64,000 nucleotides of DNA from Sphingomonadales bacterium (GCA_043760725.1 JAYUOS010000037.1:33551-97550), one strand, 5' to 3'; shown: positions 42,510-58,527, numbered from the stretch's first letter. Numbers and translations: made by a program. The notes: generated by a model from the letters alone, not told the origin.

Positions 42510-45500
42510 TTATCTTGGTTGTGGATCACGAGGCTGCTTTGGCTTATCCCCTCCACCTCCACCTCCACCGCCAATACCGATGCCGATGTTAAATTTGAAC
42601 TTCGACTTCTTCTTTTTCTTTGGCGCGACTTTCTGATTGGAGAGGCAGAGCCAGCTGTTGGTTACAGTCACCGTCTTATTATTGGTGGGGAAATCCCCAG
42701 CTACGGGCATAGGCAGCGAATAGGTCGGTGCGTTCCAAGTAGCTATCGACCCTGGCGTGGCTGTGTCGCAATAGGTTTGGGCAGCTGCGGGCAGCGCCGG
42801 CTGAACCTCACTAAGCATACAATGTCCGCCGACCGGGACGAAACCACCTACATTAATAGTGCCGCTGGTAGTTGCAGTATTGATCGTCACCGAGCCGGTC
42901 AGCAATGCGCCAGATGACATAGTCCCGGTGCAATTACGGCTAATGACATAGGGCAGCGCAGGTAGCGGCGGAGCACCCGCCGGTCCCTCTACTTTCTTGA
43001 TTGCCGCGAGAAACCAAGGGTGATTCAAGACGCATTTCCATTTGTTGGTGACAGTCACCGTTTGGATGCCGGGCCCCATGTTGACGCTGGGCGACGAGTA
43101 GGTCGGGGCTTCCCAAATGGCGGTGTAGCTGGCGCCAGCGGTTGCTTGACAATGGCTTACAGCTGCGGCTGGAATAGCTGGTACAGTCTCGTTTACCACA
43201 CAATTAGCATTCTCGGGTGTAGTAAACATATCGCTGTTGCCGAAGGCGGCGTTGGATGAAGCCAAAGTCGTAATTGGCAAGCCCGGTGTCGAGGCAACCG
43301 GATTGCAGATCACGCCGATGTTAAAGATTGTCTGCGGGAACTGCGTCGGAATTGCAGGACCTTGTACATTCTTAATGACTTCCAATTGGTCAGTGGCATT
43401 GGGGTTATTGGGCACACAGCTCCAAATATTAATGACCCTCACGGTCTGCGGAGCAGCTGTGATCGTCAGGCTGACAGGAGGCCAAGTCTGCCAAGTGGCA
43501 GTCGTGTTTGCCGGACAAAATGCTGTCATTGCAGGGTCAACCGGCAACGGTTGCACTTCAGACAATGTGCAATTGGCACCAACAGGTGCAACAATGGGCC
43601 CGCCATTCGTTCCGCTGTGAGGATAGCTAGTGGTGATAGCCGCAGTGGAAACACTCGCTGCAGGCGTACACGTCGCGTTGATCGTAAAGGTCATGTTCGG
43701 CAATTGCGCGGTTGGACCTTGCACGATTTTGATCAAGTCGATTTGTCCGTTGTTGGACTTACAACTCCAAGTATTGGTAACCGTCACCGTCTGTCCGGCA
43801 CTGGTGATTGTCACGCTCGGCGGGGTCGAGCTGGTTTGTCCATTGTATGTATAGGTCGGAGCATCCCATTCCGGCGTTGTGCCTCCAGTGCAATAATTAG
43901 TAGCAAAGGGCGGAAATACAGTTGGGAAATTGGTGGTGTCTTCGGTGACTGTACACACCGCATTAAGTGGGGCAATAACCGAACCGTCCGCCGTGAGCCA
44001 GTTATAACCCGTTCCTGTGGTGAGAGTTAATGCCGTTGGTGTTGAATTAGGCGAGCAATTTGTATTCACGGTCCAATTTTCAGATGTCCATTGGTAAGTC
44101 GGTCCAGGCGGGATTTGGGTTTTGAAGATTTTTTTGACCGCCAAAGTTCCCGTGTTTGGTAGACAATGCCACGCATTGTTCACCGTCACAGTTTGAACGC
44201 CGTTGGTGATGGTTACGCTTGGCGGGGTCGATGTCGTCACGCCGTTCACAGTATAGGTAGGTGCATCCCATGCCGGTATTCCGCCACCATTTGCCGGAAG
44301 CGAGCAGTAGTTTTTGATTGCGTTCGAAAAGGCTATTGTCGGCGTCGGTTCCGTCACCGTGCAGTTGTCAGCTATGGGAGCCGTTACCATGCCGCTGCCG
44401 GTGATCACTGCATTGCCAGAAGCGGGCGTGTTGATTGTCACAGTTGAGGACGCCCCCGACGGCGTGCAATTGGTATTGATCGTCCAGATCGTCGCTGGCC
44501 ATTGAACAGCGGTTTGCAGGGTCGTGAAAGATTTGATCACCTCCAACTGGCCCGTTACAGGCACACATTTCCAAGAGTTGGTAATGGAAACTTGCGCACC
44601 GTTGGCACCAATCGGCACCTTACCATTGCTCGGCGCAATAAGCGGCGTATTCCATTCCGGCTTGTTTCCCGGACCACAGAACGTCTTTGCAGACGCTGGG
44701 AAGGCAGGCAATGGCGAGTTTTCTGTCACAGTGCAGCTTGCGTTTAGCTGCACAGGGAATGTGATGGTGCCAACCGCTAAACCGTTATTGACCGGTTGGG
44801 TCGCGCTACCGCCGGGAGTGCAGTTTGCGGTGACACTGAAATTCAGGTTCGTTAGGACAACGCTCCCTGCAGGGTTGCTGATCCGTTTTGTGACGGTCAA
44901 TATCGGCCCTTTTGTGCAACGATAGGTATTGGTGACAGTCACCTGATTACCTGTTGCGCTTAATGCCCCCAGAGTGATCGGCGCATTACTGCTAACCGCA
45001 ACATTTCCGACACCACCGCAACGCTGTGCCATCGCCGCCGGAATTGCGGGCATTGCGGTTTCTGCGACTTTGCAGGTTCCGCTCATCGGCACAGTATTTA
45101 CGGTGAAGTAGTTGCTGTATCCATTGGGGTTGGTCGTGTGCAGCGACGTGCTCGGGGAAGCCGTAGGGATGCCATAAGGCGTGCAACTAACTTCAAGCTT
45201 GAACTGGCCAAGCGCGGTGATACCTGCGCCTGTTTGGTCAATGACTTGTTTGCGCACCGAGATCGTCGTGACCGGGATGACGGGCACATTGTAATCGGTG
45301 CATTTGGGGTTGATGCCGCTGTTATTATACCAGCCGGGTCCAGCCTCTGCCCCTTGCGCCTCGACACAGGCCCGGTTGTTGACATCCTGTCCTTGCTTAA
45401 TTGCCGATCCGGGCAGCGTCAGATTCCAGATGCCACTGGCCCCAACGCCGAGATTTTTGATCCCGATCTGCCATTTGACGTTATGCGGAACAGGTGCAGT

Positions 45501-47981
45501 CCAGCACCAGCTTGACGCACAGCTACCAGAGGCGACCATGGTGTTTGAATAAGGCGCAGCAAAACCGTCTTTTACAACAAATCCAGGGGTTGCAGGGCCG
45601 GTGAGGGCACTTTGCGCGGTGTTCGTAGTCGTGATCGTATACGTAATCGGATTGGTATTGCCGAAATAGGTCCACGGACTTGAACCGCTCGGCAGCCCGC
45701 CAACCACGCCCGACTTGTTAATGTTTGCATCCCAGCATTTTGGCAACGCAGCCTCAACGGTCGCCCAATTTTTGTCCTGTGGCTTGGGGTTCGACCCGGC
45801 TCCCAGAGTGTAGTTACCCGATGGCGGCCAAGCGATGTTGCTGTTGAACGGATGGGTAACATCCATCAGCGCCAGATTTTCAAACAATGCCGGTTTGGTG
45901 GTGCAATATTTATCATTCAACGGCGGGCGTTTGATGACGATGCTAATCTTACAATCAATCGTTCCACCGCTGGGAAAGGCGATGTTGCTGCCCAGATTGA
46001 TCGTCGGTGATCCTTGCGCGGGTGATGATGTGTGGACAGCGGTGCCGTTGATAACGCCATTTGCACTTGGGCCGCCGCTCCACGATGCCTGACACTTCCA
46101 TGTCGAGGTAAATGGCAATGAAGTCGCATAATCGGGAATCGATATCCGCGCGACGTCGATTACCGTGCCGATGTTGCGCGCCGGACCAAGGTTAGTGAAT
46201 GATACACGATAGTCGAGCGGCACGCCAAATTCCACAACCGCCGGATTGTTTTTCAGAGTTTTTTTAACAAGGAATTCGCAGGCCGGTTGCGGTTCCATCT
46301 CAGTTATCGCTTTGGCTTGCTGCGTAAAGGTGGTGGTCTGCCCCGTTACTGTGATCGCGCCATAAGGCGACGCTTTATACGTCGCGCGCGCAATATTGAT
46401 GATCGGTTTTGGATTGGCATTCGGCACAGTTTCGCAGTCTGGCTCAGCATAGACGAACGTCGTATAAAATGTGATCTTCTCACCGGGCTGCATTTCGATT
46501 TTCTCGGTTGTGTCCCAAGCGTGATCGACCTCTCCGTAAAACGTGTAGCTGTGATCAGGGTCGGCTGAGATTCCAGGCGTAAAGTCGCTACAACCCGCAG
46601 AAATGGTGGTCTCCGAAGGTTCGCATACTGTATCAACATGGATGCGGGTAAAGGGCGGCGTGTTCACGCCTTCCTGCACCCAATCTTGAAGGTCATTCTT
46701 TGCAATGGTAATTTGCTGCGCGGGGATCGACGCATTTTCGATGACTATTTTATACGTCACCTTTGAGTTCCACGGCACAGGGTTGCTCGGATCGACCTGC
46801 TCTTTGGTCATTTTCAAATGGCCGGTCCCGCAATTGGGATCAACTTTTGTCTGACCGGTTTCTACTGCGGCATTGACCGCCGCTGTGTTGTTAGCAGGGT
46901 TCAGCTCTGTTTTTGCAGACGTCGCGTTGGCAAGGGTAAAGAAGGTTTCGTTACGAAGGCCATTAGCGTCTTTCACCTGGATGCAATTCAGTCCGCCAAG
47001 CTGTAATATTCTGACTTTGATGGTCAACGTCATGGTCGAACCAGACTGCAAATGGCCATTGCTGCCCGCTGGGTATTTCCAGTCAAAGAAATTGTGATAG
47101 CCCATTGTGCCGACCAGGGTTGGTGTGCCGCCGGTCAGGTTGATGTCGTTCGGATCAAGGCAATCATTAGGCGTCGAGCCAGATGCTGGCGTCACCGAAC
47201 AGTTCGCACTGACAAACTCTACGTTCAACGGAACGCTGTTGGGCAATAGTGAAAACCGGTCATGCAATACAAACCAGTTGCCGACATCAACATCGGCGGG
47301 GCCATTGTTTTTGACAGTGATAGTGTAGGTAATGTTTCCGTTACCAGTGGTCAGATTGACCGCGTTCGGTGATGCCATTTTGGTAACCGAAAGATCGGCA
47401 TTAATCGGCGTAGTTCCCAAAACCTCGGTGGTAACGTCGTCCTTTGCGTTATGCGTGGGCGAATTGCCCTCTGCTTTGTTGAGTTTCGTCCCAGACGAAG
47501 TGAATATGCCGGGCGCAAAACAGGTGACGGTCCGGCCAACGCCTAAAGTGATTTTGACAATTCCGTTGGTCGCAGTGCTGGCAAACGGAAATACACTGGC
47601 CCCTAAATCATCCCTGCAAAATATGGGGCCGGAGGGCGTGAATCCGAATGACGAAGGATTGCTTAGCTTTGTGTCAATGATGTCGACATCTTGCTGCGGC
47701 TGGCTCCAGGGATTGGTAACCGCAAATGTGTAATACACCGGTGTGTTCATCGGCACCGGGGTCGCCAACGTGCAATCCGCCGGTTTTGACAGCATCATCG
47801 GATTGCCAGCGCAGAAATTCTTTTTAAAGCTGAATTTCGGGCCAGCCGCTGTCGCCAGTGCTGTAATTCCGATAATCATAACAAGCGCAAGCACCGCCCA
47901 AAACCAACGCGGAATATTCCGTCCAGATTCTGGTTCTTTTGAACCACCAAAATTGGCGTCAGCTGCTGTATCGATGCTCAT
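42510..47981 (-). CDS. giant secreted/surface protein: N-terminal signal/anchor, DUF11-type Ig-like domains, seven tandem 4-Cys modules, Lys/Gly-rich tail
   Basis: The ORF has 1823 codons and a GGGGAG RBS. The N-terminus is RWFWAVLALVMIIGITALATAAG. The DUF11 hallmark is ADLSVTKMASPN...ITYTITVKNNGPADV. The Thr/Asn/Pro-rich composition is typical of adhesins. Confidence 0.85.
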   Translation of the reverse strand: MSIDTAADANFGGSKEPESGRNIPRWFWAVLALVMIIGITALATAAGPKFSFKKNFCAGNPMMLSKPADCTLATPVPMNTPVYYTFAVTNPWSQPQQDVDIIDTKLSNPSSFGFTPSGPIFCRDDLGASVFPFASTATNGIVKITLGVGRTVTCFAPGIFTSSGTKLNKAEGNSPTHNAKDDVTTEVLGTTPINADLSVTKMASPNAVNLTTGNGNITYTITVKNNGPADVDVGNWFVLHDRFSLLPNSVPLNVEFVSANCSVTPASGSTPNDCLDPNDINLTGGTPTLVGTMGYHNFFDWKYPAGSNGHLQSGSTMTLTIKVRILQLGGLNCIQVKDANGLRNETFFTLANATSAKTELNPANNTAAVNAAVETGQTKVDPNCGTGHLKMTKEQVDPSNPVPWNSKVTYKIVIENASIPAQQITIAKNDLQDWVQEGVNTPPFTRIHVDTVCEPSETTISAGCSDFTPGISADPDHSYTFYGEVDHAWDTTEKIEMQPGEKITFYTTFVYAEPDCETVPNANPKPIINIARATYKASPYGAITVTGQTTTFTQQAKAITEMEPQPACEFLVKKTLKNNPAVVEFGVPLDYRVSFTNLGPARNIGTVIDVARISIPDYATSLPFTSTWKCQASWSGGPSANGVINGTAVHTSSPAQGSPTINLGSNIAFPSGGTIDCKISIVIKRPPLNDKYCTTKPALFENLALMDVTHPFNSNIAWPPSGNYTLGAGSNPKPQDKNWATVEAALPKCWDANINKSGVVGGLPSGSSPWTYFGNTNPITYTITTTNTAQSALTGPATPGFVVKDGFAAPYSNTMVASGSCASSWCWTAPVPHNVKWQIGIKNLGVGASGIWNLTLPGSAIKQGQDVNNRACVEAQGAEAGPGWYNNSGINPKCTDYNVPVIPVTTISVRKQVIDQTGAGITALGQFKLEVSCTPYGIPTASPSTSLHTTNPNGYSNYFTVNTVPMSGTCKVAETAMPAIPAAMAQRCGGVGNVAVSSNAPITLGALSATGNQVTVTNTYRCTKGPILTVTKRISNPAGSVVLTNLNFSVTANCTPGGSATQPVNNGLAVGTITFPVQLNASCTVTENSPLPAFPASAKTFCGPGNKPEWNTPLIAPSNGKVPIGANGAQVSITNSWKCVPVTGQLEVIKSFTTLQTAVQWPATIWTINTNCTPSGASSTVTINTPASGNAVITGSGMVTAPIADNCTVTEPTPTIAFSNAIKNYCSLPANGGGIPAWDAPTYTVNGVTTSTPPSVTITNGVQTVTVNNAWHCLPNTGTLAVKKIFKTQIPPGPTYQWTSENWTVNTNCSPNSTPTALTLTTGTGYNWLTADGSVIAPLNAVCTVTEDTTNFPTVFPPFATNYCTGGTTPEWDAPTYTYNGQTSSTPPSVTITSAGQTVTVTNTWSCKSNNGQIDLIKIVQGPTAQLPNMTFTINATCTPAASVSTAAITTSYPHSGTNGGPIVAPVGANCTLSEVQPLPVDPAMTAFCPANTTATWQTWPPVSLTITAAPQTVRVINIWSCVPNNPNATDQLEVIKNVQGPAIPTQFPQTIFNIGVICNPVASTPGLPITTLASSNAAFGNSDMFTTPENANCVVNETVPAIPAAAVSHCQATAGASYTAIWEAPTYSSPSVNMGPGIQTVTVTNKWKCVLNHPWFLAAIKKVEGPAGAPPLPALPYVISRNCTGTMSSGALLTGSVTINTATTSGTINVGGFVPVGGHCMLSEVQPALPAAAQTYCDTATPGSIATWNAPTYSLPMPVAGDFPTNNKTVTVTNSWLCLSNQKVAPKKKKKSKFKFNIGIGIGGGGGGGGDKPKQPRDPQPR
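42645..45269 (-). repeat. seven tandem protein-level repeat modules (115-134 aa each) inside the giant gene
   Basis: The modules span residues ~905-1779. Each follows the pattern L.V.K ... NC(T/S)P ... C(T/K/V)V.E ... (F/Y/H/R)C ... VTV(T/N)N.W.C, so four Cys are conserved per module. The modules have diverged at the DNA level. Confidence 0.7.
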
Positions 47982-48208
47982 CGTCTGCTCCCCGTTTCCA
48001 TACCTTTGCGCAACGGGCGAAAGGCTGGTCTAGGGTTAGTCGTTCGGCATAGGGGAATGGTTCAATCGAACGCGAATTATTTTTTCGTTGCCCTAAACGC
48101 AACAGCACCGATCGCCTCGATTGCGCCATTAACTGACACATTCTGGGCAACCGGTGCTTGCGCTTCTGCGATGGTCGAGTTCGCAGAAGAGGGAGAAGGG
48201 TGCCGCTA

Positions 48209-48574
48209 CTAGGGCAGCGTGATCATTTCCGACGGAGCAGATTGCACACCGTCTTGGCGCAGGATCACATGATAGGTGCCGGGCGGAAGGTTGTTGACCG
48301 GAACAGACACAGTAGTGCCGGTGGTCGCCGCCATTTTTCCGCAATCTTTGCGCGTCGTGAAAATTTTGGTCTGCTTCAACGTGGTTGTTTCGCTGACCCA
48401 GATTTTTACGGTCCCCTCATCCTTCACGCACGTGGTGGTCACAATCAAGCTGTCGCCGGTGGCGGTTGTGATTTTAGACACAGAACTAATCGTCAACGTC
48501 CCGAGCGCCCATGCGGGGGTAGAAAGCGCTGCTATGGCCATTGCGGCCAAGGCGAATTTGGTCATGTTTTTCAC
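48209..48574 (-). CDS. small secreted protein (beta-rich, 2 Cys)
   Basis: The GTG at 48574 lies 8 nt after AGGAGA. The signal peptide is KNMTKFALAAMAIAALSTPAWA. The mature protein is ~97 aa, Thr/Val-rich, with LPPGTYHV. I recognise no family. Confidence 0.55.
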   Translation of the reverse strand: MKNMTKFALAAMAIAALSTPAWALGTLTISSVSKITTATGDSLIVTTTCVKDEGTVKIWVSETTTLKQTKIFTTRKDCGKMAATTGTTVSVPVNNLPPGTYHVILRQDGVQSAPSEMITLP

Positions 48575-48667
48575 GGAAATTTTCTCCTGCCTTTTTTGAA
48601 CTCTGACACAGTCGGACCGAGCGTCGAAAAGGTTCAAAATGCAGCGAGATCTTTTTTGAGTAGACGA

Positions 48668-49915
48668 CTATTTCTTTACAGGTGCACTGAGCCGGAACAA
48701 CCCATTACCGAATACAGCATCATGGCCCTTTGCGCCCAAGTCTTGCGCGCGGGCGGCGACTTGCTCCTTCATCGCAGCTGGATTGCGTCCGCCGTTGCAG
48801 GCGGGCATCCTTAATAGCGCTCCCGACACAACAGCGGTGGCAAAGCTTGTTCCCGATACCGCACGGCGGCCTCCCGGCGCTGCAGCGTTCAAGCCAACGC
48901 CAACACCCGCAACATCAATGCGGTCGCCTTGCGAGGCATAAGCATAGCCGTTTAGCTTTTCATCGACTGCAGTCACCGCAAGGCTTGATGGATGCGAGGC
49001 GGGAAAGAGCACTTTGCCGCTCGGTCCGCCATTGCCCGCCGCCGCCGATACGCAGACGCCGTTCTTGCGGATAGTATCGAGCGTGATGCCGAGCAACTTG
49101 TCCTGCGGCCCTCCGAAAGAAAGGTTCAGAACATCGGGCCGCAACCGCGATGCCTCGTTCATCGCTTTCGCCAGAAACGATGTGCGCGACAGCACATCGT
49201 CGGTTCCGCTACCACCAAACGCTGCAAGGCTGGTCAGCCTTGCACCCTGTGCCGTTCCCGGATAATTGCCTGTGCCAACGAGCAACGCGGCAATCGCTGT
49301 TCCGTGAACCGCAGGGCTTTTGTCGGTGCCAAAAAATTGCTGTGTTACGTTGGCTCCGGCAAGGTTGTCATGGGCGGTATCAACAACAGCATCAATCATC
49401 ACGATACTGCCAGTTACGCTGGGCTGTTTTTCCGGGATGACGTGCAGTTCGAAACGTTTCGGGCGGCTTTTGCCGAGTAACTGAAACTGATAATTCGGCT
49501 GCGCAAAGGCAATGCCCTTTTGCCGCTCCAGCCGCGCGGTGGCGGCGGTGACCGTGTCACCATATGCCAGAGACGCGACTACCATCGTCACGTTAGATTC
49601 GTCGAGCCATGCGCTATCGATGACGCTAACATTAGCTTTACGGGCGATCGACGCTGCATTTGCATCCTGACCATTGATGACAAAAATGACTTCATCCGAG
49701 ACATATTCGTCGATGGCAGCATCGCGCATTTCCAGCGGAGGGACCTCGGGTGTTTTCGGCTTTTTCTTACCACCCAGCTTAATCGATATGCCAATACCTG
49801 AGCCACCGGTATGGGGGCGATTGGGGCGCGGTTGCTGACTCTGGCCAGGTATCACTTGCCCGATCGCCGCTGATGCGAGCGATGCCAAAGCTAAGCCAGA
49901 GATCAGCCTCTTCAT
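48668..49915 (-). CDS. S8 family (subtilisin-like) serine peptidase with N-terminal propeptide
   Basis: 415 aa with a signal peptide. The catalytic triad contexts are VMIDAVVDTAHDNL (Asp), HGTAIAALLVG (His) and SGTSFATAVVSG (Ser), with oxyanion NLSFGG. Confidence 0.85.
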   Translation of the reverse strand: MKRLISGLALASLASAAIGQVIPGQSQQPRPNRPHTGGSGIGISIKLGGKKKPKTPEVPPLEMRDAAIDEYVSDEVIFVINGQDANAASIARKANVSVIDSAWLDESNVTMVVASLAYGDTVTAATARLERQKGIAFAQPNYQFQLLGKSRPKRFELHVIPEKQPSVTGSIVMIDAVVDTAHDNLAGANVTQQFFGTDKSPAVHGTAIAALLVGTGNYPGTAQGARLTSLAAFGGSGTDDVLSRTSFLAKAMNEASRLRPDVLNLSFGGPQDKLLGITLDTIRKNGVCVSAAAGNGGPSGKVLFPASHPSSLAVTAVDEKLNGYAYASQGDRIDVAGVGVGLNAAAPGGRRAVSGTSFATAVVSGALLRMPACNGGRNPAAMKEQVAARAQDLGAKGHDAVFGNGLFRLSAPVKK

Positions 49916-50601
49916 ACTGCCTTGTCAGCCGCCGCGATTAACGGCGACGTTTTCAGCCTTTCGATTTGTCGCTCTAGCGCCTCATCCTTTAGGTCGCTTG
50001 AAAGCGTGAGTGCGCCATCGCTCGGCCCGCCGACAATCTCTAGTCCCTCGTTCGCAAGCAGTTTCTCAAATTCTGCCCATGATACATCGGATGCCAGCTG
50101 CAATATGATACTGGCTTTTTGCGCAGCTTCGCCGCCGGGGCCAGAGGCAAGCTGAAACTCGACCTCGCCAAGCCGCTTTTCCAGCGACGCGATCTTTGAC
50201 GACCGTTGCGTATTCTCGCCGTTAAGGTTGGCAATCAATCCGGCCTGCGCGATAGCCGCGATGGCCAGCGACAAAGCGACCGCCGGATGCCAGCTTCGCG
50301 GGTTGAGGAATGCCAACATGGCCCCTAAACTCGCGCTAGGAGCAGACATCCCAGTAGGTGCTCGAGCCTCCGACAGCTTTGCCGCAACGCGTCCAACCCG
50401 CATAGCATCCCCTTGTCCCAAATCACGACCTCCGGTTTTAACGCCTTGCGCTAATCGGCCAATTTCGGCCAGCTCTTCACGCAACTCTGGGGATGTTGCA
50501 AGCGCCGCATCAACCAAAGCGCAAGCATCGGCATCCAACGTGCCGTTGACATAGAACGGCAGCAACAACGACACATTTTGAAAATCCGGATCTTGGGCCA
50601 T
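49912..50601 (-). CDS. anti-sigma-factor-like single-pass membrane protein
   Basis: Start taken at MAQDPDF. The N-terminus LLLPFYVNGTLDADACALVDAALATSPELREELAEI has anti-sigma domain layout but lacks the HxxxCxxC zinc motif. It has one TM helix (WHPAVALSLAIAAIAQAGLIANL). The stop overlaps the S8 start (ATGA). Confidence 0.55.
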   Translation of the reverse strand: MAQDPDFQNVSLLLPFYVNGTLDADACALVDAALATSPELREELAEIGRLAQGVKTGGRDLGQGDAMRVGRVAAKLSEARAPTGMSAPSASLGAMLAFLNPRSWHPAVALSLAIAAIAQAGLIANLNGENTQRSSKIASLEKRLGEVEFQLASGPGGEAAQKASIILQLASDVSWAEFEKLLANEGLEIVGGPSDGALTLSSDLKDEALERQIERLKTSPLIAAADKAV

Positions 50602-50692: not shown

Positions 50693-53600
50693 TCAACCAT
50701 TCGGCCGATGACTCAATGCAACCTCGGTCATCCAAGTCAAAGCCGACCGGCTGGGCATAAAGAAATAGCCACCGGCCATTACAGTCACGAAATTTTGCAT
50801 CCCTGTCAGCTTGATCGGGCCAACAGGGGTCGGGATATTGAAGCTGCGTTCTGCTGGACAGCCGGTCAACGGATCGGGCGTGTCAGTACCAAAAATCGGG
50901 TCTGGTTCATGCGACAGCCCGTGAAAGTTGGCCGAGTTACACCAGACCTGTTGGACAAATTCAAACTGTCGTTCAAGATCGGCACACAGGCTGACAAACA
51001 ACAGGCCTTTCTCTGTGCCGCCGCCTGTTGCAGGCCGCGTGTAGGTGCGACCGCGACGGAGCAAGCGGTGGCGGTTGCTGATAATCTGTTCAGCGGGATC
51101 GCCCGGTTGTTTGCTATCGCGCGGATTGGTCCGGCGCATATGCGAGCCAAAGGGACACGCAAGCCCTTGCGGATCATCCATCCCGTACGTGAAATCATTC
51201 TCGGTTTCCGCTGCGCGGCAATACGCTTCGTCGGGGTCGCCCGGCAGCGGCGAAGCTGTATTCACCGGATTGCCGATCAGCGGGCGGCCATTGGGCCAAC
51301 GCCCCATCAGCTTGGCCTTGATCCAATCCTTGTCGGGATATTGGCCGATGACTTTGTAAATGTCGCGGTAGACCATCTGGTCTTCGCTTTCGACATTACC
51401 CATGATCTCGTCGGCTTTTCGCCTGACGAATTCGTCAAAGCCTTCGACGTCTTGTTGCAATTCGCGCACCACAACAAAGCTACCGTTGCGTCCAAAATCG
51501 CGCGGGGCATCGCTGATGGTTTTGTCACCGAAATCGGGGAAGCGGCTTAAGCCAACATCTGAAGATAGCGGGAGAGTCCGGCCAAGGTCAGCCTCGGCCG
51601 GCAACATCGGGCTAATCGGAAAATGGCCCTGCCCGTTTTTATAGCCCAGAATGAACTCACCGGGTTCAACAAGATCGCGGGCCGGAACGCCGCGTGTTTG
51701 CCGCCCGGTGCCGCGGATCACCGGCTGCGCAATGCCGTCGCGATAGCCGAAATGTTCGAATTCCGGCTTTGCGGAATCGGCTGGCGCGCAGTCGAGTTGG
51801 TTCAATATGCTACCGCCATAATTCTCAATCAAAGCGCGGTGGACTTGCGTCGCAAAACTCAGATCAGCGGGGCTTTCGGCATAGACAAACAGCACAGCCT
51901 GTGCGGCATCATCGTCCCAACGCCAGTTGGTGGAATCCGCCGTGCCGACATCGCCCAAATTGCGGCCTCGATTTGCCATGCCCATGCGGAATGCCGGGGG
52001 GAAGCCCGACAGCAAAGTTTCGTCCGCTGTATTGGGAGCCTCGAACTTAGCCATTCCAGCGGCGGAACAGCCCAAAAACACTGCCCGTCGTGCGGCGTGT
52101 TGAGCGTCGGCTTTGCCGAATATTTGTTCATCCGCTGTGTCCGACAAATCCACTGGATCGGGGACTTCCTCATAGATTGTCGCATCGCCGACCAAGGGTC
52201 GGTCGCCAAAGGTCAGCGTCATCGAATGGGCAAGGGCATAGCCTTCAATCTCTCCGTCGCGCCCATATACCGGCACAATCACGCCGCCCCCCATAAGGCC
52301 ACCGGTCGATGGCGCGTTCTTGGGAGCGCTTGCAATATCGAGTTTTTGCGTCGCGCCCCGTATCCAGCTGAGCCACTCGCCAAGCGCAGGGGTTGGCGGT
52401 AATTTGAGCGTCAGGCAGGTCGAAAACTGCAACCGCTTTAGCCCAGAAAACACAAGCGCTTGGACCTCATCGCTTTCGATCAGGTTGTCGACCCGGGGCA
52501 TTGACCCGAAACAGCGCAGCCATTCCGCCGCCTCGCTATTGGTGCGCGCGCGGGCGACACCGCTATGAATAAGGGCGTTTCCCCTAATCTGGTCAGTCGT
52601 CAGCGTCGGAAAGCGGCTATACCAGAATGGCACAATCTGTTGCCGCGTGCGGACCCAGCGTTTGAAATTCTCACCCTGCCCCGCCCCTTCAAAGATCAGG
52701 TATTTGGTCTCGGGAAAGCCTTTCCAATTGCTCCACACCGATGTTTGCCCCCAGCGCGCACGGGTGATGAAGTCCTCCAGATAGCTTTCCCAACTGCCAT
52801 CAAAATTGGAATAGAATGCAGTTTTGTTCGTGCCCGGGACGCGCCACCAACGGGCATAATGGATCGTGCCCATATTGATCACAAAGCCGGGGCGATAGTT
52901 GAAGGTGATAATGATCCGTATCGCCCAAAGCGCAAAGGCATGAGCGAAAGCGCGCAAGAAACCCGGCTTCATCTCGCCGACCGCAAGGATATGGTTTTGC
53001 GCATAGCCCGGCGCATCCTCCAACTGCCCGATCTTTGCGATATGATCGAGCGGTGCTTGGCCGGAGTCGATCCAGTCTTCTTTCTCGGCGCGGCGGATTG
53101 CAATGAAAAACGCAGCGGTGGCAAGGGCCAGAACGATTGCCGTCGCCAAGATGGCGCGCAGGCCGGTTCCTACAAATTGCCAACCAAAGCCGGGACTGGG
53201 ATCATAGACCCCGAACAGCCAGCCGAAAAACGCGAACAAAGCAACGACCGGGATTGTGAAAACCAACCCCTCCCGCGACCGCAGAAACGCCATAAATGAT
53301 CCCATCTTTGTCACCCGCCGGAAATCGGCAAGATTCAGAGCGGCACTATCTGGCAACAAACGAAACGCGTCGAACCCTGCGCTCGCGGCTTCGCGCATCA
53401 ACGTCCGCTGGCCGGATGTTGCGGTCAATGCAAGAATACGGTCCTGATTGAGTATCCGCCGCACATAGTTCAGAGCCAGCATTGCGTGGCTACCGCTTGT
53501 CGCTTCGTTACCCAGATAATCGGCCACGACGCGTTCAACAAAAGTCGCAAAGCGCGCCTGCTTTTCAATGGTGGCCACCGGGAACTCGCCTGTCCCGACA

Positions 53601-55339
53601 TAGTTCAGACCGTTGGCGCCCCATGGCTTGCCGTGCAGCTTGACAACATGCTCGGTCAGGAAATTGACAAAATCGGCACTATCGGCAAGGCCACATTGCG
53701 CAAACAACGGGCGTAGCAGCGCCTCGCAATTCAACGCCAGCTTCTTGATAGCGGACGCTTGATCGCCATCGACGCTCAATTCCCACACAAGGTCGACGCG
53801 CTTTTCCGATTCTATCGTCGCTAGCGACGAAAAATGGACGATACCCGTCGCATCCAACGCCGCTCGCATCTCAGGCCCAGCCGGATTACCGAGCTGCGCA
53901 ATATCTAAATCGATCTGTGCTTTGGGTATTTCCGCATTGACCGGTGCAACCAACAAAAACATCGTTTGCTGCGATGTTGCCGTATCAAACGTCATCACCC
54001 AATTGCGTGGAAACGGGCCAATCGACTGCATTCGTCCGGGTTGGCCCTTGGCAGGTTTCAACCCCGACTGGCGCAGTAGCAAACTCAACACATCGGCGAT
54101 CTGTTCAATCGCCAGATGCTTGCCTAGGCACCAATGGATGCCAGCGCCAAAGATCAGGTCGGGCTCGATCCAGTTGCCGTGTTCGTCGCGGCGGTCGGGC
54201 AGGAATGCCTTAGGCTTTGGCATCGCGCGCACATCACGCATCGCCGACATTGTGGAGACCATCAAAGTTGATCCGGCGGGAATGGTCTTCTGCTGCCCCT
54301 TGCCCAGATCAATGATAGTGTCTTTTGCGCAATAGCGCCACTGGCCGGGGGCAAGCGCTGGATTAAGGCGGCCAGCCTCTAGCAATATCCGCTTAAAATC
54401 TTCGCGCCCTGCTGCGCCCTTTTGTGCTGCCGCCACCGCCATGTCCCACGCCGCTGGGTGACGGCGCAGTTCTTCAAACATCTTGCCCGCGCCTAGGGTA
54501 TTAGTCGGCACAAACCCAGCGGCTAGACCGATCAGAACGGCACGGATATCGGCATCAGAAACTGGTTCACCGCCCTCTGCTTTGCGCGCAGCTTGCAAAG
54601 TCACCAGCCGACCCACTAAGGTCGATTGATCGTCAACTGCGCCCTTTGCCTGCGCTTGGCGGACACGGGCAATCGCGTGATCGACGACAAAGCGCAATCG
54701 TGCCGCACCGTTTTGTGAAACAGCCCGCACGCGTTCATCACCATAAGGATCACCAAACAGCCGCGCCGATACCGCCAGCGTCCAGTCGGCAAATTGCGAG
54801 GGATCATCGACCGAGAGCCCGAAATAACGCAGGCAAATTTCAGCCGCGACCCGCTTTAACAGATCGTCGATCACATCAATCCGGCCCTTGGAATTATCGA
54901 GCAACGCCTGCGCATAGGACTGGCTCAGCTCGCGGATCAGCTCCATGTCCGCCTCGGGCCGCAAAGCATGACGCACCAAAGCGTGCATCCGTGCATGATC
55001 TGGCCCATCCAGCCCCAGAACAAAGGTCGCGCCGCCCGCCAGCTCCTCCATCTCTGGCCCGAATGGCACAGTGAATTCATCGGGCCGCAGCAACACTTGG
55101 CGCACATCGGCATCGCGGGTGATGTGGTAAAATCCGGCCAGTTTGAACACCGGGAAATACCGCCGCGACACCGCATAAATCGGTTTCAACAGCGCTTGTG
55201 CAAAGGCCGATTTCGCCGCTGCAAATTTGCTCGGGTTGGCGATATTGGCAAAATCAAATGGCGGAAGCGTCGGGTCCTTTTTATCACGCTGATTGGCGAG
55301 CGTCCGGCTTACGGTTTCAAAATACTTGGCATTTGGCAT
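50693..55339 (-). CDS. cytochrome P450 / unassigned domains with TM hairpin / DyP-type peroxidase fusion protein
   Basis: The ORF has 1548 codons. The P450 part has ExxR in LLEAGRLNP and the heme loop FGAGIHWCLGKHLA (Cys404). TM helices lie at about residues 691-747. The DyP part has EHFGYRDGIAQP, GEFILGY, NGSFVVVREL, CPFGSHMRRTNPRD (His1400), LLRRGRTY and LERQFEFVQQVW. Confidence 0.85.
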   Translation of the reverse strand: MPNAKYFETVSRTLANQRDKKDPTLPPFDFANIANPSKFAAAKSAFAQALLKPIYAVSRRYFPVFKLAGFYHITRDADVRQVLLRPDEFTVPFGPEMEELAGGATFVLGLDGPDHARMHALVRHALRPEADMELIRELSQSYAQALLDNSKGRIDVIDDLLKRVAAEICLRYFGLSVDDPSQFADWTLAVSARLFGDPYGDERVRAVSQNGAARLRFVVDHAIARVRQAQAKGAVDDQSTLVGRLVTLQAARKAEGGEPVSDADIRAVLIGLAAGFVPTNTLGAGKMFEELRRHPAAWDMAVAAAQKGAAGREDFKRILLEAGRLNPALAPGQWRYCAKDTIIDLGKGQQKTIPAGSTLMVSTMSAMRDVRAMPKPKAFLPDRRDEHGNWIEPDLIFGAGIHWCLGKHLAIEQIADVLSLLLRQSGLKPAKGQPGRMQSIGPFPRNWVMTFDTATSQQTMFLLVAPVNAEIPKAQIDLDIAQLGNPAGPEMRAALDATGIVHFSSLATIESEKRVDLVWELSVDGDQASAIKKLALNCEALLRPLFAQCGLADSADFVNFLTEHVVKLHGKPWGANGLNYVGTGEFPVATIEKQARFATFVERVVADYLGNEATSGSHAMLALNYVRRILNQDRILALTATSGQRTLMREAASAGFDAFRLLPDSAALNLADFRRVTKMGSFMAFLRSREGLVFTIPVVALFAFFGWLFGVYDPSPGFGWQFVGTGLRAILATAIVLALATAAFFIAIRRAEKEDWIDSGQAPLDHIAKIGQLEDAPGYAQNHILAVGEMKPGFLRAFAHAFALWAIRIIITFNYRPGFVINMGTIHYARWWRVPGTNKTAFYSNFDGSWESYLEDFITRARWGQTSVWSNWKGFPETKYLIFEGAGQGENFKRWVRTRQQIVPFWYSRFPTLTTDQIRGNALIHSGVARARTNSEAAEWLRCFGSMPRVDNLIESDEVQALVFSGLKRLQFSTCLTLKLPPTPALGEWLSWIRGATQKLDIASAPKNAPSTGGLMGGGVIVPVYGRDGEIEGYALAHSMTLTFGDRPLVGDATIYEEVPDPVDLSDTADEQIFGKADAQHAARRAVFLGCSAAGMAKFEAPNTADETLLSGFPPAFRMGMANRGRNLGDVGTADSTNWRWDDDAAQAVLFVYAESPADLSFATQVHRALIENYGGSILNQLDCAPADSAKPEFEHFGYRDGIAQPVIRGTGRQTRGVPARDLVEPGEFILGYKNGQGHFPISPMLPAEADLGRTLPLSSDVGLSRFPDFGDKTISDAPRDFGRNGSFVVVRELQQDVEGFDEFVRRKADEIMGNVESEDQMVYRDIYKVIGQYPDKDWIKAKLMGRWPNGRPLIGNPVNTASPLPGDPDEAYCRAAETENDFTYGMDDPQGLACPFGSHMRRTNPRDSKQPGDPAEQIISNRHRLLRRGRTYTRPATGGGTEKGLLFVSLCADLERQFEFVQQVWCNSANFHGLSHEPDPIFGTDTPDPLTGCPAERSFNIPTPVGPIKLTGMQNFVTVMAGGYFFMPSRSALTWMTEVALSHRPNG

Positions 55340-55360: not shown

Positions 55361-57040
55361 TCAGTCGTTTCGAGCCATCGCTTGGTTCATTCCGTCCGCC
55401 AAAAACCTGTTCCAATGACTATTCATAAATGGAACCCAGTCGATGTAGTGCAGCCCAAATCGGGGGATTGACGCTTTAAGTTCGGCAACAGCATCCTTCG
55501 CCGACGCCCCCTGCCCGCTACGCACCAGAGCATTGATCTTCATCACATGTGAAAACCAATATGCGCCTCTACGTGTCAGCGAGAGGTCAGCCTGCTCTAG
55601 CGCATCATCAAACGCTCCGATCATCACATACGACACGGCCAGTTCGCCGCGAAAATAGAAAAGTTCTGCATCATTGGGGCTAAGCTGGATCGCATTTTTC
55701 AGCGTCGGAATCGCATCCTCAGGCGCATCGCGTAGGTAATAGCTGCCGCCCAATTGCGCGTGCGCCATAGCCAGGCTGGGATTAAGTTCGATGGCACGTT
55801 TCAACAAAGCTTCTGCACGTAGCGGTTGGCGCAACCATTTTTCAGCAATGCCCGCCAGCATGTGGCCGCGCGCATCGTCATAATCTGCGATGATCGCCTT
55901 TTGCGCCATTTGCCGGATCACGCGGATTTCTTCATCCGACCCGCGCTGCGCCCAAAGGTCCCATAACTTGGCCCAAGTCATCTGGATGATCGCCTCAGGC
56001 GAGTTCGGTTCGCGTTCCAGCGCCTCGGCTATATAGGCTTTCGCCTTTTCTGAATCCTCAGCAGTAAACCGGTTCAAATGCCAGCGCCCGCGCCAGATCA
56101 GTTCGCGGACATTGAGGTCGCTTTGCGGTTTGCCCAAAGCCCGGGATTGCTCCGCTTGGTCGACCTTCGCCCCTAAAGCGGTTGTCAGTCCAGTCAGCAA
56201 TTCACCGAAAGCATCAGGCGCATCTTGCGCGCTAAGGGCCAACTTGTTCGACCACAATGTGTTGCCTGTTTCGCAATCAACCAGCGACGCGGACAGCATG
56301 TTTGCGCCAACCTGACTCCTAACTCTGCCTTCAAGCAAATACCGCGCGCCAAGTAATTCGCCGGCAATCTTGGGATTAGTTTCTCGCACGGCAAAGCTGG
56401 AACTGCGCGATATGATCGGCAGCCAGCGCAACCGCGACAAACGGTCAATTAAATCCTCGCTGATGCCCTCTGCAACAAAATCCTGATCAGGATCGCCAGT
56501 CAGGTTTTCAAACGGCAACACCGCCATTGCGGGAAGCGCAGTAAACGCTTTGGCAATTTCGGCGTTGGCTGCGGTTTGCACCCTTTGCGTAACAGACTCT
56601 GTGTCGGACGTAGCCTCGCTCTTAGCCCGCTGCTCGCGCAGCCAATCCTCAAAGCCATCCTCGCCCGGGATATCCATCCCTTCTAGAAACTCCGCAGCGC
56701 CCGCGACATTCGGCCCACGCGCGTCCACTTGGATAGAGCTAAGGTCGATCCAGATACGCGCGTGGTCAGCGTTTAGAAGCGGCTGTCCGTCATGTTTCAG
56801 CAAGCCACGCAGGCTGGAGAGTTCACTGCGTAGGCTGGACTGCGCCTGATCCTGCCCGCGCGATCCCCATAGCTGGCTTTGCAACCAATTGCGTGTTCGC
56901 TCCCCTCCGTTCGCACTTGCAAGCATTGCAATCAATGCCTGCCCCTTGCGGCTTGAAATATCTATGCGGCGGCCATCCGGCGCATGCAGCCGGAACGGCC
57001 CATGCAACTGCAATGTAAAAAATGCCCGCCCTTGCGACAT
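55361..57040 (-). CDS. winged-helix (OmpR/SARP-type) transcriptional regulator with TolB-N-like and TPR domains
   Basis: The ATG at 57040 follows AGGGGG. The N-terminus is FTLQLHGPFRLHAPDGRRIDISSRKGQALIAMLA...SLRSELSSLR. The middle is AVLPFENLTGDPDQDFVAEGISEDLI. The C-terminus contains TPR-like repeats. Confidence 0.75.
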   Translation of the reverse strand: MSQGRAFFTLQLHGPFRLHAPDGRRIDISSRKGQALIAMLASANGGERTRNWLQSQLWGSRGQDQAQSSLRSELSSLRGLLKHDGQPLLNADHARIWIDLSSIQVDARGPNVAGAAEFLEGMDIPGEDGFEDWLREQRAKSEATSDTESVTQRVQTAANAEIAKAFTALPAMAVLPFENLTGDPDQDFVAEGISEDLIDRLSRLRWLPIISRSSSFAVRETNPKIAGELLGARYLLEGRVRSQVGANMLSASLVDCETGNTLWSNKLALSAQDAPDAFGELLTGLTTALGAKVDQAEQSRALGKPQSDLNVRELIWRGRWHLNRFTAEDSEKAKAYIAEALEREPNSPEAIIQMTWAKLWDLWAQRGSDEEIRVIRQMAQKAIIADYDDARGHMLAGIAEKWLRQPLRAEALLKRAIELNPSLAMAHAQLGGSYYLRDAPEDAIPTLKNAIQLSPNDAELFYFRGELAVSYVMIGAFDDALEQADLSLTRRGAYWFSHVMKINALVRSGQGASAKDAVAELKASIPRFGLHYIDWVPFMNSHWNRFLADGMNQAMARND

Positions 57041-57057
57041 GCGACCCCCTGTCCAGT

Positions 57058-57072: not shown

Positions 57073-57094
57073 GTTTCGCAATTTTCACGCGTTT

Positions 57095-57112
57095 TTTGAC
57101 GATCCTTTGACG
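57095..57112. promoter_or_regulatory. direct repeat TTTGACG-N4-TTTGACG (11-bp register)
   Basis: The copies are at 57095..57101 and 57106..57112, in the intergenic region between the divergent regulator gene and the methyltransferase-like/ECF sigma operon. This spacing is typical of sites bound by OmpR-type winged-helix proteins. Confidence 0.3.
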
Positions 57113-57176
57113 CCGCTTTGCCGCTCACTTGGCGCTCGCACCGTATCGCTCACTTATGAGGAAAAAAGGGACGCCG

Positions 57177-57983
57177 ATGCTGTACACCCGCTTTTACGAT
57201 CAGGTGCTGACCGAAATCGCCGCTGGCAAAGTAAGCGACGGCATCAACCTGCTGGTCGGCATGCTTGATACTGTCAATATCGGGCCGGGCTCGCTGGCTC
57301 AGGCAAAACGGGAGCTGCACGGACACAGCCTAGCCAGAATGCTGCTGGAAGATCCGTCGCTGGCCGATGCCGAGGCGAGACCCAATGCGATAATGGCTCG
57401 CATAGCAAGCATCGGTCGCACCACGAAAGGCGCCGATATCAGTTCCACCGGCCGCCGACTGTTTGAGGTTACCAGCGAGCTAACCGTTGCACGTGCGTTG
57501 CGGCAGCGGCGCCAAAGCTATGAACTGAAATTCGCCCGCGCCTCGCAGCTCGGCCAAAAAATATGTGTGTGCGTCAGCGGAGGGCACAAGGCCGCCGACC
57601 AGCTGAACAATGCCGATTTTTCAAAAGCGACCGTTATCGATACCGACGACCACAGGTGGACGGCGGCAAAGTCTAACCCGCGCTTTGATCTCATTCTTGC
57701 ACCCGATTTGTTCGACAGAAACAAGCCGTCTGCTCTTCCCCACATCCTGAAATCGATGGCGACCTGTTTGGGCAAAAGCGGCAGCATCATCATCGCCGCC
57801 CTTTCGCCAAATCATTTGGGTTCGGGCTGGCGCAGCGCCTGTCTGAACTGGGATCCACATTGCCATGACGAGGCGGCTTTAGCCTCCCTTGCAGCAGCCG
57901 CCGGGCTGACGGCGCGGACCTATCGGGATGAAACAGATTGCGTCGTTTGGGGTGAATTGGGGGCAAATACTCATGGAAACTAA
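57177..57983 (+). CDS. hypothetical protein, class I methyltransferase-like C-terminal half (degenerate motif I)
   Basis: The ATG at 57177 lies 6 nt after AAGGGA; the listed ORF starts at a TTG at 57129. FDLILAPDLF...LKSMATCLGKSGSIIIAA resembles post-motif-I regions of SAM methyltransferases, but the glycine-rich motif I is poor (ICVCVSGGH). Its end overlaps the sigma gene by 11 nt. Confidence 0.5.
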   Translation: MLYTRFYDQVLTEIAAGKVSDGINLLVGMLDTVNIGPGSLAQAKRELHGHSLARMLLEDPSLADAEARPNAIMARIASIGRTTKGADISSTGRRLFEVTSELTVARALRQRRQSYELKFARASQLGQKICVCVSGGHKAADQLNNADFSKATVIDTDDHRWTAAKSNPRFDLILAPDLFDRNKPSALPHILKSMATCLGKSGSIIIAALSPNHLGSGWRSACLNWDPHCHDEAALASLAAAAGLTARTYRDETDCVVWGELGANTHGN

Positions 57984-58527
57984 AGCAAAGCTAGCGGCAA
58001 TAGCGGGCGGCGACCGGACGGTTTTCGCCGCCTTGTTTAAAGAATATCTGCCGCGCTTTGTGCCCTATGCAACCGGGCTTTTGGCGGGCGATAAAGACGC
58101 CGCAGAAGACGTCGTCCACGACGCTTTTATGGCAATATGGCAGCAAGCCGGGCGCTTTAGCGGAACCGGCAGCGCCGAGGGATGGATGCGGCGGATTGTT
58201 CGCAACAAGGCAGTCGACTGGTGCCGCAAGCAGCGCGAAATACCTATGACAGTTGAGTTGCAGACCGAACATTCGGAGAAAGCCGGCGGCTCGAACCCGT
58301 TTGAAGCGGCAGTGCAATCAAATGCAGCACAGCAATTGCGCGGCGCGCTTTCGATATTGAGCGTAGAGCAGCGCGAAGCAGTGTGGCTGTGCTATTTTGA
58401 AGAGTGCTCGTTGAGCGAGATTGCCCAATTTGCGCAGTGCCCCGAGAATACTGTCAAAACTCGATTGTTTCACGCCCGCAAAATTCTGCGGAATTCGCAT
58501 ATTCTAAAAGCGTCCGCTGTCGCATAG
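57973..58527 (+). CDS. ECF-type RNA polymerase sigma-70 factor
   Basis: 184 aa from the ATG at 57973. Region 2 is DAAEDVVHDAFMAIWQQAGRF ... WMRRIVRNKAVDWCRK. Region 4 is LSEIAQFAQCPENTVKTRLFHARKIL. Confidence 0.85.
   Translation: METKAKLAAIAGGDRTVFAALFKEYLPRFVPYATGLLAGDKDAAEDVVHDAFMAIWQQAGRFSGTGSAEGWMRRIVRNKAVDWCRKQREIPMTVELQTEHSEKAGGSNPFEAAVQSNAAQQLRGALSILSVEQREAVWLCYFEECSLSEIAQFAQCPENTVKTRLFHARKILRNSHILKASAVA

Follow-up and report, generated by a model that had tools for sequence, protein, structure and literature searches.

A P450-DyP fusion enzyme and an ECF sigma factor in a candidate three-tier regulatory module of a sphingomonad

Organization of the locus

The 64-kb stretch of sphingomonad DNA considered here (the window, meaning the whole stretch) contains a block of eight genes spanning about 16 kb, in which an extracytoplasmic function (ECF) sigma factor, an anti-sigma-like membrane protein, a secreted subtilase of the S8 family and a large fusion of a cytochrome P450 with a DyP-type peroxidase are found together. 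The block is real and coherent, and we think it probable that it constitutes a three-tier regulatory module with the P450-DyP enzyme as its conserved output. The first-pass annotation of the window had proposed a sigma/anti-sigma-controlled unit that builds a cell-surface fibre. Control by a sigma/anti-sigma pair gains support from four promoter motifs, from the joint occurrence of the ECF, anti-sigma-like and S8 genes in related loci, and from the way in which the motif tracks the presence of the ECF gene. The idea of a fibre factory holds for this lineage alone: just six loci have the giant DUF5979 protein, other secreted proteins stand behind the same type of promoter elsewhere, and fibre building is thus not the conserved function. 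The features of the block are as follows.

42445..42478, no strand assigned: GC-rich hairpin (GCATAAGGGGA...TCCCCTTATGC, read directly) between the convergent cysQ-like and giant genes
42510..47981, minus strand: giant repeat protein, 1823 aa, with three DUF5979 domains by Pfam
48209..48574, minus strand: small secreted protein, 121 aa, GTG start (longest open reading frame (ORF) to 48637), with a signal peptide
48668..49915, minus strand: secreted S8 subtilase, 415 aa, its start overlapping the anti-sigma stop by 4 nt, with a signal peptide and a GIGISIKLGGKKKPK stretch
49912..50601, minus strand: anti-sigma-like membrane protein (ORF to 50640), from a weak zf-HC2 match and an AlphaFold2 (AF2) model
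50693..55339, minus strand: P450-DyP fusion, 1548 aa, from Pfam, NCBIfam, PDB profiles and AF2
55361..57040, minus strand: winged-helix/TPR regulator (ORF to 57088), TPR by Pfam and N-terminal winged helix by profile
57129..57983, plus strand: methyltransferase-like gene, first of the ECF operon, likely true start ATG 57178
57973..58527, plus strand: ECF sigma factor, overlapping the upstream gene by 11 nt, alternative ATG at 57928

The ORF list reproduces every one of the eight genes, and coordinates and sequence alike confirm the intergenic distances (21, 91, 93 and 227 nt) and both overlaps, one of 4 nt (ATGA) and one of 11 nt. The domain assignments made earlier hold in Pfam and NCBIfam searches, those of the anti-sigma-like and methyltransferase-like proteins being weak. 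A hidden Markov model (HMM) of the ECF family gives no second ECF factor in the window, so that the sigma factor of the block is the single one of its kind there. Housekeeping genes flank the block as had been described, with CysD, CysNC and a CysQ-like protein on one side and a class-III aminotransferase on the other. The hairpin, which is present in the sequence at the position given for it, appears to mark the block boundary and is a likely bidirectional terminator; generic scans of the DNA for sigma-70 promoters and terminators found neither above chance. The closest genome locus is in a Sphingorhabdus metagenome-assembled genome, whose fusion protein is 89% identical to that of the window, which identifies the source as a sphingomonad.

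A promoter motif shared by four transcription units

A sequence of the form TGAACC-N16-CGACT was first seen before three genes while the intergenic regions were being read. A pattern search of the window with TGAAC-N17-CGACT returned exactly four matches where 0.07 are expected, a count that none of 100 shuffles reached, and a position weight matrix scan of the 64 kb found no site beyond these four. All four lie on the minus (gene) strand and end 16-56 nt ahead of the first start codon of the transcription unit that they precede.

55363..55389, minus strand: ECF-type promoter motif, within the final codons of the regulator and stopping 23 nt short of the start codon of the fusion
50657..50683, minus strand: ECF-type promoter motif (with TGAACT), within the 91 nt that precede the anti-sigma/S8 pair
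48610..48636, minus strand: ECF-type promoter motif before the small secreted gene
48038..48064, minus strand: ECF-type promoter motif, of the form TGAACC-N16-CGACT, its end lying 56 nt ahead of the start of the giant gene

We compared the block with 80 loci that carry the fusion (designated L001 onwards), using tblastn, all-against-all ORF clustering and six-frame HMM searches. The motif follows the ECF and anti-sigma-like genes closely in this set. There are 55 exact matches in 622 kb from loci with an anti-sigma gene, against 4 in 1013 kb from loci scored as lacking one, and two of these four are in L030 and L031, which are ECF-clade loci. In the 150 nt that precede the fusion gene the motif is present in 28/28 loci that have ECF and anti-sigma genes (25 exact, 3 with one mismatch), while the 34 loci without either gene give no exact match and a single one-mismatch match. 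The position before the anti-sigma/S8 pair is also occupied in seven related loci, and the arrangement at the giant gene is repeated in L002 and, if one mismatch is allowed, also in L018. Before the methyltransferase-like/ECF operon itself we found no motif, whether by exact pattern, with one mismatch allowed, or with the position weight matrix.

The fusion-proximal copy overlaps the end of the regulator gene. Regulators from ECF-positive loci end in ...G(L/M)N......D*, while those of ECF-negative relatives end in ...GL(R/A)...; the motif spacer varies between loci; and in several loci the regulator stop codon falls within the spacer with both conserved elements retained. These three observations speak for selection at the level of DNA. 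Since the motif lies before the fusion gene, the anti-sigma/S8 pair and the secreted genes, the predicted local ECF regulon comprises the fusion, that pair and a variable secreted cargo.

Conservation across related loci

More than 550 genomic relatives of the fusion protein were found, and nearly all of the 80 loci inspected are from Alphaproteobacteria. In essentially every locus for which upstream DNA is available the regulator gene lies directly upstream of the fusion gene, down to 32% identity, and the pair was seen in Bradyrhizobium, Rhodopseudomonas, Mesorhizobium and Rhodovibrionaceae. Many lineages have the regulator and fusion without ECF, anti-sigma-like or S8 genes. Judged from gene neighbourhoods, the universal core across Alphaproteobacteria is thus the regulator, which resembles the Streptomyces antibiotic regulatory proteins (SARPs), together with the fusion.

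The genes for the ECF factor, the anti-sigma-like protein and the S8 protein are restricted to a clade of Sphingomonadales in which fusion identity is at least about 46%, and gene order is kept down to about the same level. Over the 52 loci with both flanks available, ECF and anti-sigma genes are both present in 17 and both absent from 34; in the one discordant locus the ECF gene is present and the anti-sigma gene is degraded. The anti-sigma gene and a high-scoring S8 gene occur together in 17/17 loci. The association put up for testing in the first-pass annotation, of fusion homologues with the ECF gene, the anti-sigma/S8 pair and a giant protein, is borne out within the Sphingomonadales clade for the first three of these and fails for the giant protein, with its six loci.

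Nine loci from Bradyrhizobiaceae and relatives carry a shorter S8 gene divergently upstream of the regulator. This form has neither signal peptide nor prodomain, and repeats with an 11-bp period point toward it; here an S8 protein is put to a different and probably cytoplasmic use with the same regulator-fusion core. We also considered whether the large neighbouring genes of distant loci might be a hidden conserved "fibre", and rejected the idea: the proteins that they encode (YadA-head repeats, a HAMP histidine kinase, an adenylate cyclase-NTPase) are of unrelated kinds.

The P450-DyP fusion enzyme

The fusion is currently annotated as a plain "cytochrome P450". Its 1548 residues are divided as follows.

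aa 1-450: P450 domain
aa 457-565: alpha+beta domain, confidently modelled, followed by a helical region
about aa 692-747: two-helix membrane hairpin
about aa 757-950: highly conserved domain without Pfam or PDB match
about aa 955-1548: C/D-type DyP peroxidase

The P450 domain (Pfam E 6.5e-9) has the heme loop FxxGxxxCxG, with Cys404 in FGAGIHWCLG, and the ExxR motif; C404 and E321/R324 are invariant among 17 sequences down to 44% identity. The acid-alcohol pair usual in the I-helix, (A/G)Gx(D/E)T, is missing: the corresponding sequence is AGF(V/I)PTNT, with an invariant Pro278 at the position of the acid. The DyP part (TIGR01413, E 1.7e-24) retains D1201 in GYRDG, H1400 and an Arg cluster, R1423-R1431, all invariant, and aligns with solved C/D-type DyPs in two matched stretches that cover the whole fold (E down to 3.7e-59). 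Because the protein has an even number of membrane helices, the two of the hairpin, and no signal peptide, both heme domains should be cytoplasmic and the enzyme anchored by its hairpin. The first-pass annotation had included the heme fusion in a candidate envelope module, and this predicted topology would place its action on the cytoplasmic side instead.

The region between the two heme domains is harder to classify. An AF2 model of aa 440-1010 (pLDDT 64.6) gave no Foldseek match in the PDB at E <=1e-3, only generic ferredoxin-like similarity, and isolated middle segments gave no Pfam match even at E up to 5. An internal duplication involving aa 457-565, aa 775-900 and the DyP lobes was tried and rejected, hhalign returning P 0.16 or worse for every pair.

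No part of the fusion is more conserved than the domain at aa 757-950 (window 52490-53071, minus strand). Residues N782, H783 and H827 are invariant in it, Trp and Tyr are frequent, and it carries the motif FDGSWESYLEDF. With invariant His, Trp and Tyr so densely placed, the domain might contain a third cofactor or a site of radical transfer.

When aa 757-955 were used as a query against 1.84 billion cluster representatives, 1631 matches were obtained, and these fall into two size classes, of about 1450-1650 aa and about 940-1100 aa. The shorter form has no P450 domain, its residue 2 aligning with residue 457 of the window fusion. A separate P450 gene lies immediately upstream in three out of four loci looked up for this form, once with a 4-nt overlap. 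In other words, the P450 and the remaining part of about 1000 aa, which we refer to as the "long DyP", occur as one protein in some lineages and as neighbouring genes in others, which indicates, at the level of gene organization, that they are a conserved functional pair.

Four metagenome contigs (L085, L086, L088 and L089) illustrate the unfused arrangement, with "long DyP" genes of about 960-1010 aa and separate P450 genes of about 400-460 aa. At the P450-less loci, for which there is little flanking DNA, no SARP-like regulator was called. On L085 a gene of the Polyketide_cyc2 family (START-like, lipid-binding) is found just before the P450 gene.

No gene for a reductase or ferredoxin was seen in the neighbourhoods examined, where no dedicated search for one was made. 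Because no redox-partner gene was seen and the I-helix acid is missing, we infer that the fusion most likely carries out a peroxide- or hydroperoxide-driven oxidation of a membrane-associated substrate. A literature search found nothing relevant on a P450-DyP fusion.

The anti-sigma-like protein and the S8 subtilase

The anti-sigma-like protein consists of N-terminal helices, a single transmembrane helix and a periplasmic domain of beta-alpha-beta-beta-alpha-beta topology. The N-terminal pattern of its family, LLPFYVNGTL...AL..S..LR, fits the helices of an anti-sigma domain, and some family members have been named RsiW by JGI. The zinc motif HxxxCxxC is missing, the aligned positions reading A-L-A-T-S-P-E-L in the window protein and AL..S..LR in the family consensus. 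The zf-HC2 model matches the window protein with E 1.6e-3, below its gathering score, and reaches E <=0.01 in 7/17 family members (best 1.7e-5); the sole anti-sigma match of the family profile in the PDB is RslA (3hug_B), with E 0.38. Family resemblance and co-occurrence with the ECF gene together suggest a role in sigma control.

In an AF2 model, for which 32 sequences were used, the mean pLDDT is 65; the N-terminus is helical and the C-terminal domain reaches about 85. The top Foldseek match of the model is a subtilisin propeptide (3cnq_P, E 6.9e-3, target TM-score 0.65); further matches are to 8c4x_B (PAM protease), pro-subtilisin E (3whi_B), the PC1/3 prodomain and EpiP, and neither these nor the top match are significant. 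An hhalign comparison places the periplasmic domain in register with the prodomain of the neighbouring S8 protein (P 0.0011, probability 20%), and the chain of the anti-sigma-like protein stops directly behind the last strand, like that of a propeptide after cleavage. The model thus hints at a weak resemblance of the periplasmic domain to a subtilase propeptide.

The S8 protein itself is a well-supported subtilase (Peptidase_S8, E 5.9e-17) with a Fervidolysin-type prodomain. The catalytic triad D175, H204 and S357, in the order usual for subtilisins, and the oxyanion Asn, N295, are conserved in at least 34 of 40 aligned sequences, and the 4-nt overlap of its gene with that of the anti-sigma-like protein is retained across the clade. 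It is conceivable, at a low to moderate level of confidence, that the subtilase docks on the periplasmic domain and either cuts it away or is itself held there. No paper was found in which site-1 cleavage of an anti-sigma factor is linked to a protease of the subtilisin type.

The regulator, its direct repeats and the ECF operon

The regulator is composed of an N-terminal winged helix of SARP/OmpR type, a middle part with an LPF-rich motif and C-terminal TPR repeats. A profile of 20 regulator N-termini matches EmbR (2fez, E 1.2e-5) and AfsR (8hvr, E 3.8e-5), which places the winged helix in the OmpR type. The LPF...G...L motif of the middle part resembles a TolB-like domain. Neither a BTAD nor a Trans_reg_C domain is matched in the protein even at E up to 5, and because BTAD was not detected we do not class the regulator as a canonical SARP.

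The divergent promoter region between the regulator and the methyltransferase-like gene contains an array of repeats.

57082..57123, plus strand: four direct repeats (TTTTCACG, TTTGACG, TTTGACG, TTTGCCG) at spacings of 12, 11 and 11 bp

The array points toward the methyltransferase-like/ECF operon, and similar arrays are found in related loci. Searching 1.58 Mb of loci for chains of at least three [C/G/A]ACG cores at exact 11-nt spacing, we found 23 of 31 chains within -300 to +200 nt of a regulator start. This zone amounts to some 2% of the sequence, and every one of the 23 chains is on the strand that does not encode the regulator. Such chains occur also in distant loci that have no ECF gene. 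Direct repeats of 11-bp period are the sites to which SARPs bind at the promoters that they control. By analogy, the array at 57082..57123 is a candidate operator of the SARP-type regulator, which would then control the ECF operon and perhaps its own gene. The ECF operon has no copy of the promoter motif, and it is probably under the SARP-type regulator.

The ECF protein has Sigma70_r2 (1.1e-14), r4_2 (2.9e-13) and TIGR02937 (3.9e-26; 91.6 bits against a cut-off of 42.9) matches, and contains the sigma-2 and sigma-4 regions only, as is expected of an ECF (group 4) factor. Two features that are typical of ECF loci, and do not define the group, are absent: the anti-sigma-like gene lies on the other strand at a distance of 7 kb, and there is no autoregulatory motif. 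The main text of an ECF reclassification paper has no mention of P450, peroxidase, subtilisin or sphingomonads. The methyltransferase-like protein that precedes the sigma factor has a Methyltransf_23 match at E 5.6e-4 only, and its glycine-rich S-adenosylmethionine motif looks degenerate. Its gene is present in most ECF loci and also near the regulator-fusion pair in five ECF-less ones (L024, L030, L032, L056 and L060), which suggests that its partner may be the enzyme or the regulator instead of the sigma factor.

In two regulator homologues from distant loci other N-termini replace the winged helix. By eye, one appears TIR-like (LSYNREDQATARLFAEAF...) and the other adenylate/guanylate cyclase-like (...LDVVGYSRM...). 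In L059 a cyclase-AAA-TPR gene lies just upstream of the regulator gene.

A model for the module

We suggest that these components could be arranged in three tiers. In the first, the SARP-type regulator would bind the 11-bp-periodic repeats and control the methyltransferase-like/ECF operon. In the second, the anti-sigma-like single-pass protein would hold the ECF sigma factor at the membrane, and the secreted S8 protein made together with it would either degrade it, in a site-1-type cut that frees the sigma factor, or be held by its domain. The third tier is supported at the sequence level by statistics and comparative genomics: free ECF sigma factor would read the four TGAACC-N16-CGACT promoters, with the P450-DyP enzyme, the anti-sigma/S8 pair (as feedback), the small secreted protein and the giant DUF5979 surface protein as outputs. 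The fusion enzyme might then use peroxide or hydroperoxide on a membrane-associated substrate. The first-pass annotation had the protease process either the anti-sigma protein or the fibre; its tie to the anti-sigma protein is strengthened by the gene overlap, the co-occurrence in every one of the 17 loci and the weak propeptide resemblance, and the fibre option is kept as a lesser rival, considered below.

Several points weigh against this arrangement. The four promoters are motif matches, and part of the fusion-proximal match is constrained by the coding sequence of the regulator. The ECF operon has no motif copy of its own, whereas most ECF sigma factors autoregulate. Binding of the regulator to the repeats is read across from the habit of the SARP family, in a protein in which no BTAD was detected. 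The anti-sigma assignment involves sub-threshold HMM scores, a missing HxxxCxxC motif and the RslA match at E 0.38. The propeptide resemblance is not significant (Foldseek E >=7e-3, hhalign probability 20%), and the beta-alpha-beta-beta-alpha-beta fold is a common one, ACT domains being also among the Foldseek matches. Finally, the model of the middle region of the fusion is of moderate confidence (pLDDT 64.6) and has no significant structural match.

A more ambitious version of the three-tier arrangement joins two proposals: that the fusion is a self-sufficient, membrane-anchored multi-heme oxidase, and that the ECF sigma factor is released by a subtilase acting on an anti-sigma factor whose sensor domain mimics the propeptide of that protease. 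The enzyme would then work without a reductase, with (hydro)peroxide made or used by one heme domain on behalf of the other, and its action on a membrane lipid or quinone-type substrate would be the output of an envelope signal. That both proposals hold together strikes us as rather unlikely.

Alternative explanations

The closest rival concerns the protease, which might mature or trim the secreted cargo, in the form of the giant and small proteins, rather than act on the anti-sigma factor. The S8 protein is secreted and its catalytic residues are intact, and the conserved tail of the giant proteins (KKKKK..KFKxN-IGIGIGGGG) is mirrored by a stretch in many of the coupled S8 proteins (GIGIG..GKKKPK), which hints at a shared location or at mutual recognition. 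However, the anti-sigma and S8 genes go together in all 17 loci, as against six loci for the giant protein and three for the small one; their 4-nt overlap is kept across the clade; and the S8 proteins of the giant-bearing loci L016-L018 lack the GIGIG stretch. We therefore consider cargo trimming doubtful as the main role of the protease. A second rival is a cluster for ribosomally synthesized and post-translationally modified peptides (RiPPs), in which the P450 would cross-link a peptide, the S8 protein would remove its leader and the ECF system would merely regulate. There are weak NCBIfam matches of the S8 protein to the PatA/PatG and QhpE leader peptidases (about 1e-11) and of the P450 to the RiPP P450 ApyO and cyclodipeptide-synthase-associated P450s, and in Bradyrhizobiaceae a short S8 without signal peptide adjoins the regulator and fusion. 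All of these NCBIfam scores are, however, far under the family cut-offs. No conserved short precursor gene was found in the loci, the 121-aa ORF being a signal-peptide protein of three loci; the window S8 has a Sec signal and a prodomain and would thus act outside the cytoplasm, whereas the P450 is expected inside; and many regulator-fusion loci have no S8 gene at all. A RiPP-like cluster is accordingly a very improbable explanation.

It might also be argued that the genes are chance neighbours, or share a loose "envelope" theme without shared regulation, the motif matches being fortuitous. The cargo genes do differ between genomes, and the ECF gene is separated by 7 kb from the anti-sigma-like gene. 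Yet the four motif matches (0.07 expected) are equalled in 0/100 shuffles; the motif and the ECF, anti-sigma and S8 genes correlate almost perfectly over 52-62 loci; and gene order persists down to about 46% fusion identity. Chance association is strongly disfavoured and, to our minds, close to negligible.

Relationship to known systems

Each component of the proposed three-tier module belongs to a known superfamily. The sigma branch resembles the sigmaE-RseA-DegS, sigmaW-RsiW-PrsW and sigmaV-RsiV systems in having a two-domain ECF factor and a candidate single-pass anti-sigma factor with an extracytoplasmic sensor domain. With proteolysis-activated ECF systems more generally it shares an N-terminal cytoplasmic sigma-binding helix bundle (putative here), an anti-sigma gene within the predicted regulon, a GAAC-type -35 element and a CG-rich -10 element. 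It differs from known ECF systems in the 7 kb between the anti-sigma and sigma genes, in that no autoregulatory promoter was found, in the missing zinc motif of the anti-sigma factor, and in having an S8 subtilase as the protease partner. To our knowledge, site-1 proteases are of the S1 (DegS), PrsW, S41 (Prc/CtpB) and signal peptidase types. In SREBP signalling, a subtilase site-1 protease (SKI-1) starts the release of a membrane-tethered transcription factor, and by analogy a subtilase could start the release of the ECF sigma factor. The periplasmic domain of the anti-sigma-like protein is like subtilase propeptides and I9 inhibitors in its fold and in its ending after the last strand, with similarity below significance; the situation differs from that of a plain propeptide in that the S8 protein also has a prodomain of its own.

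The regulator resembles the actinomycete SARPs AfsR and EmbR in its N-terminal OmpR-type winged helix, in its TPR repeats (found in large SARPs) and in the associated 11-bp-period repeats. It differs in being alphaproteobacterial, in that no BTAD or NB-ARC domain was detected, and in that its proposed target is an ECF operon and not a biosynthetic promoter.

For the enzyme, the nearest parallels are the fungal Ppo proteins (linoleate diol synthase) and the coral allene oxide synthase-lipoxygenase, which likewise combine a peroxidase-type heme domain with a P450 and need no reductase partner, as is proposed for the window enzyme. These fusions also have a P450 I-helix without the usual acid; in them the first domain makes a hydroperoxide, which the P450 rearranges. 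The window enzyme differs from them in that its peroxidase is of the DyP superfamily and not of the animal-peroxidase/COX fold, in its reversed order, with the P450 first, and in having two extra domains and a membrane hairpin; it is, moreover, bacterial. Its DyP part agrees with the C/D-type (class V) DyPs, DyP2 of Amycolatopsis (4g2c), AnaPX (5c2i) and 8re3 in fold coverage and in the invariant Asp of GXXDG, the proximal His and the Arg cluster. Unlike other C/D-type DyPs, it is always paired with a P450 and is preceded by about 500 aa of family-specific sequence, made up of the alpha+beta domain, the helical region, the transmembrane hairpin and the conserved domain without Pfam or PDB match.

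What is new here is the pairing of P450 and "long DyP", the 11-bp-period repeats at the regulator and, on weak evidence, the propeptide-like anti-sigma domain. The fusion is common, at more than 550 loci and 1631 cluster representatives for the middle domain, though no paper was found that describes it. As their fused or neighbouring genes show that the two heme enzymes work together, the pair offers a clear target for enzymology and possibly a reductase-independent biocatalyst, and the P450 and "long DyP" would, if the proposal is true, form a new class of self-sufficient, membrane-anchored multi-heme oxidase. The regulatory side is a compact, testable circuit with a SARP-like regulator, an ECF/anti-sigma pair and a precisely predicted promoter sequence. 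It may use a new route of ECF activation, through a subtilase, and a subtilase-released ECF factor would, if true, be a bacterial counterpart of the site-1 cleavage of SREBP. Both the enzyme pair and the subtilase-coupled anti-sigma factor merit experiments.

The secreted cargo

The two secreted proteins of the window appear to be variable passengers of the ECF regulon. The giant protein has an N-terminal membrane anchor or signal, followed by Cys-containing repeats of DUF11-like and DUF5979 type, and its homologues are limited to six loci (the window, L001, L002, L016, L017 and L018). The distribution marks it as a lineage-specific, swappable ECF cargo, and the gene is better annotated as such than as a "surface fibre" that is the point of the module. 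The small secreted protein, with a weak DUF2141 match, occurs in only three loci, its L004 and L041 orthologues being also preceded by the motif, and is likewise variable cargo. In relatives, the genes behind extra motif copies encode mostly signal-peptide, PEP-CTERM or membrane-anchored proteins.

The C-terminus of the giant protein (42510-42620, and likewise in L002, L016, L017 and L018) has a lysine run, KFKxN, IGIGIGGGG and a basic, Pro-rich end. The N-terminus of the S8 protein (49760-49830, and likewise in L004, L005, L007, L009 and L041) has a mirror-image GIGIG(L/I)S..GKKKPK after the signal peptide. The two are not always found in the same genome, and they may be an element for envelope anchoring or recognition. 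Between the S8 and giant genes, L017 (18977-20890) and L018 (17517-19364) encode a protein with PKD and autotransporter beta-domains, which may be an outer-membrane partner of the giant protein in these two loci; the same PKD/autotransporter beta-domain protein is encoded in L010 (20436-22640), which has no giant gene.

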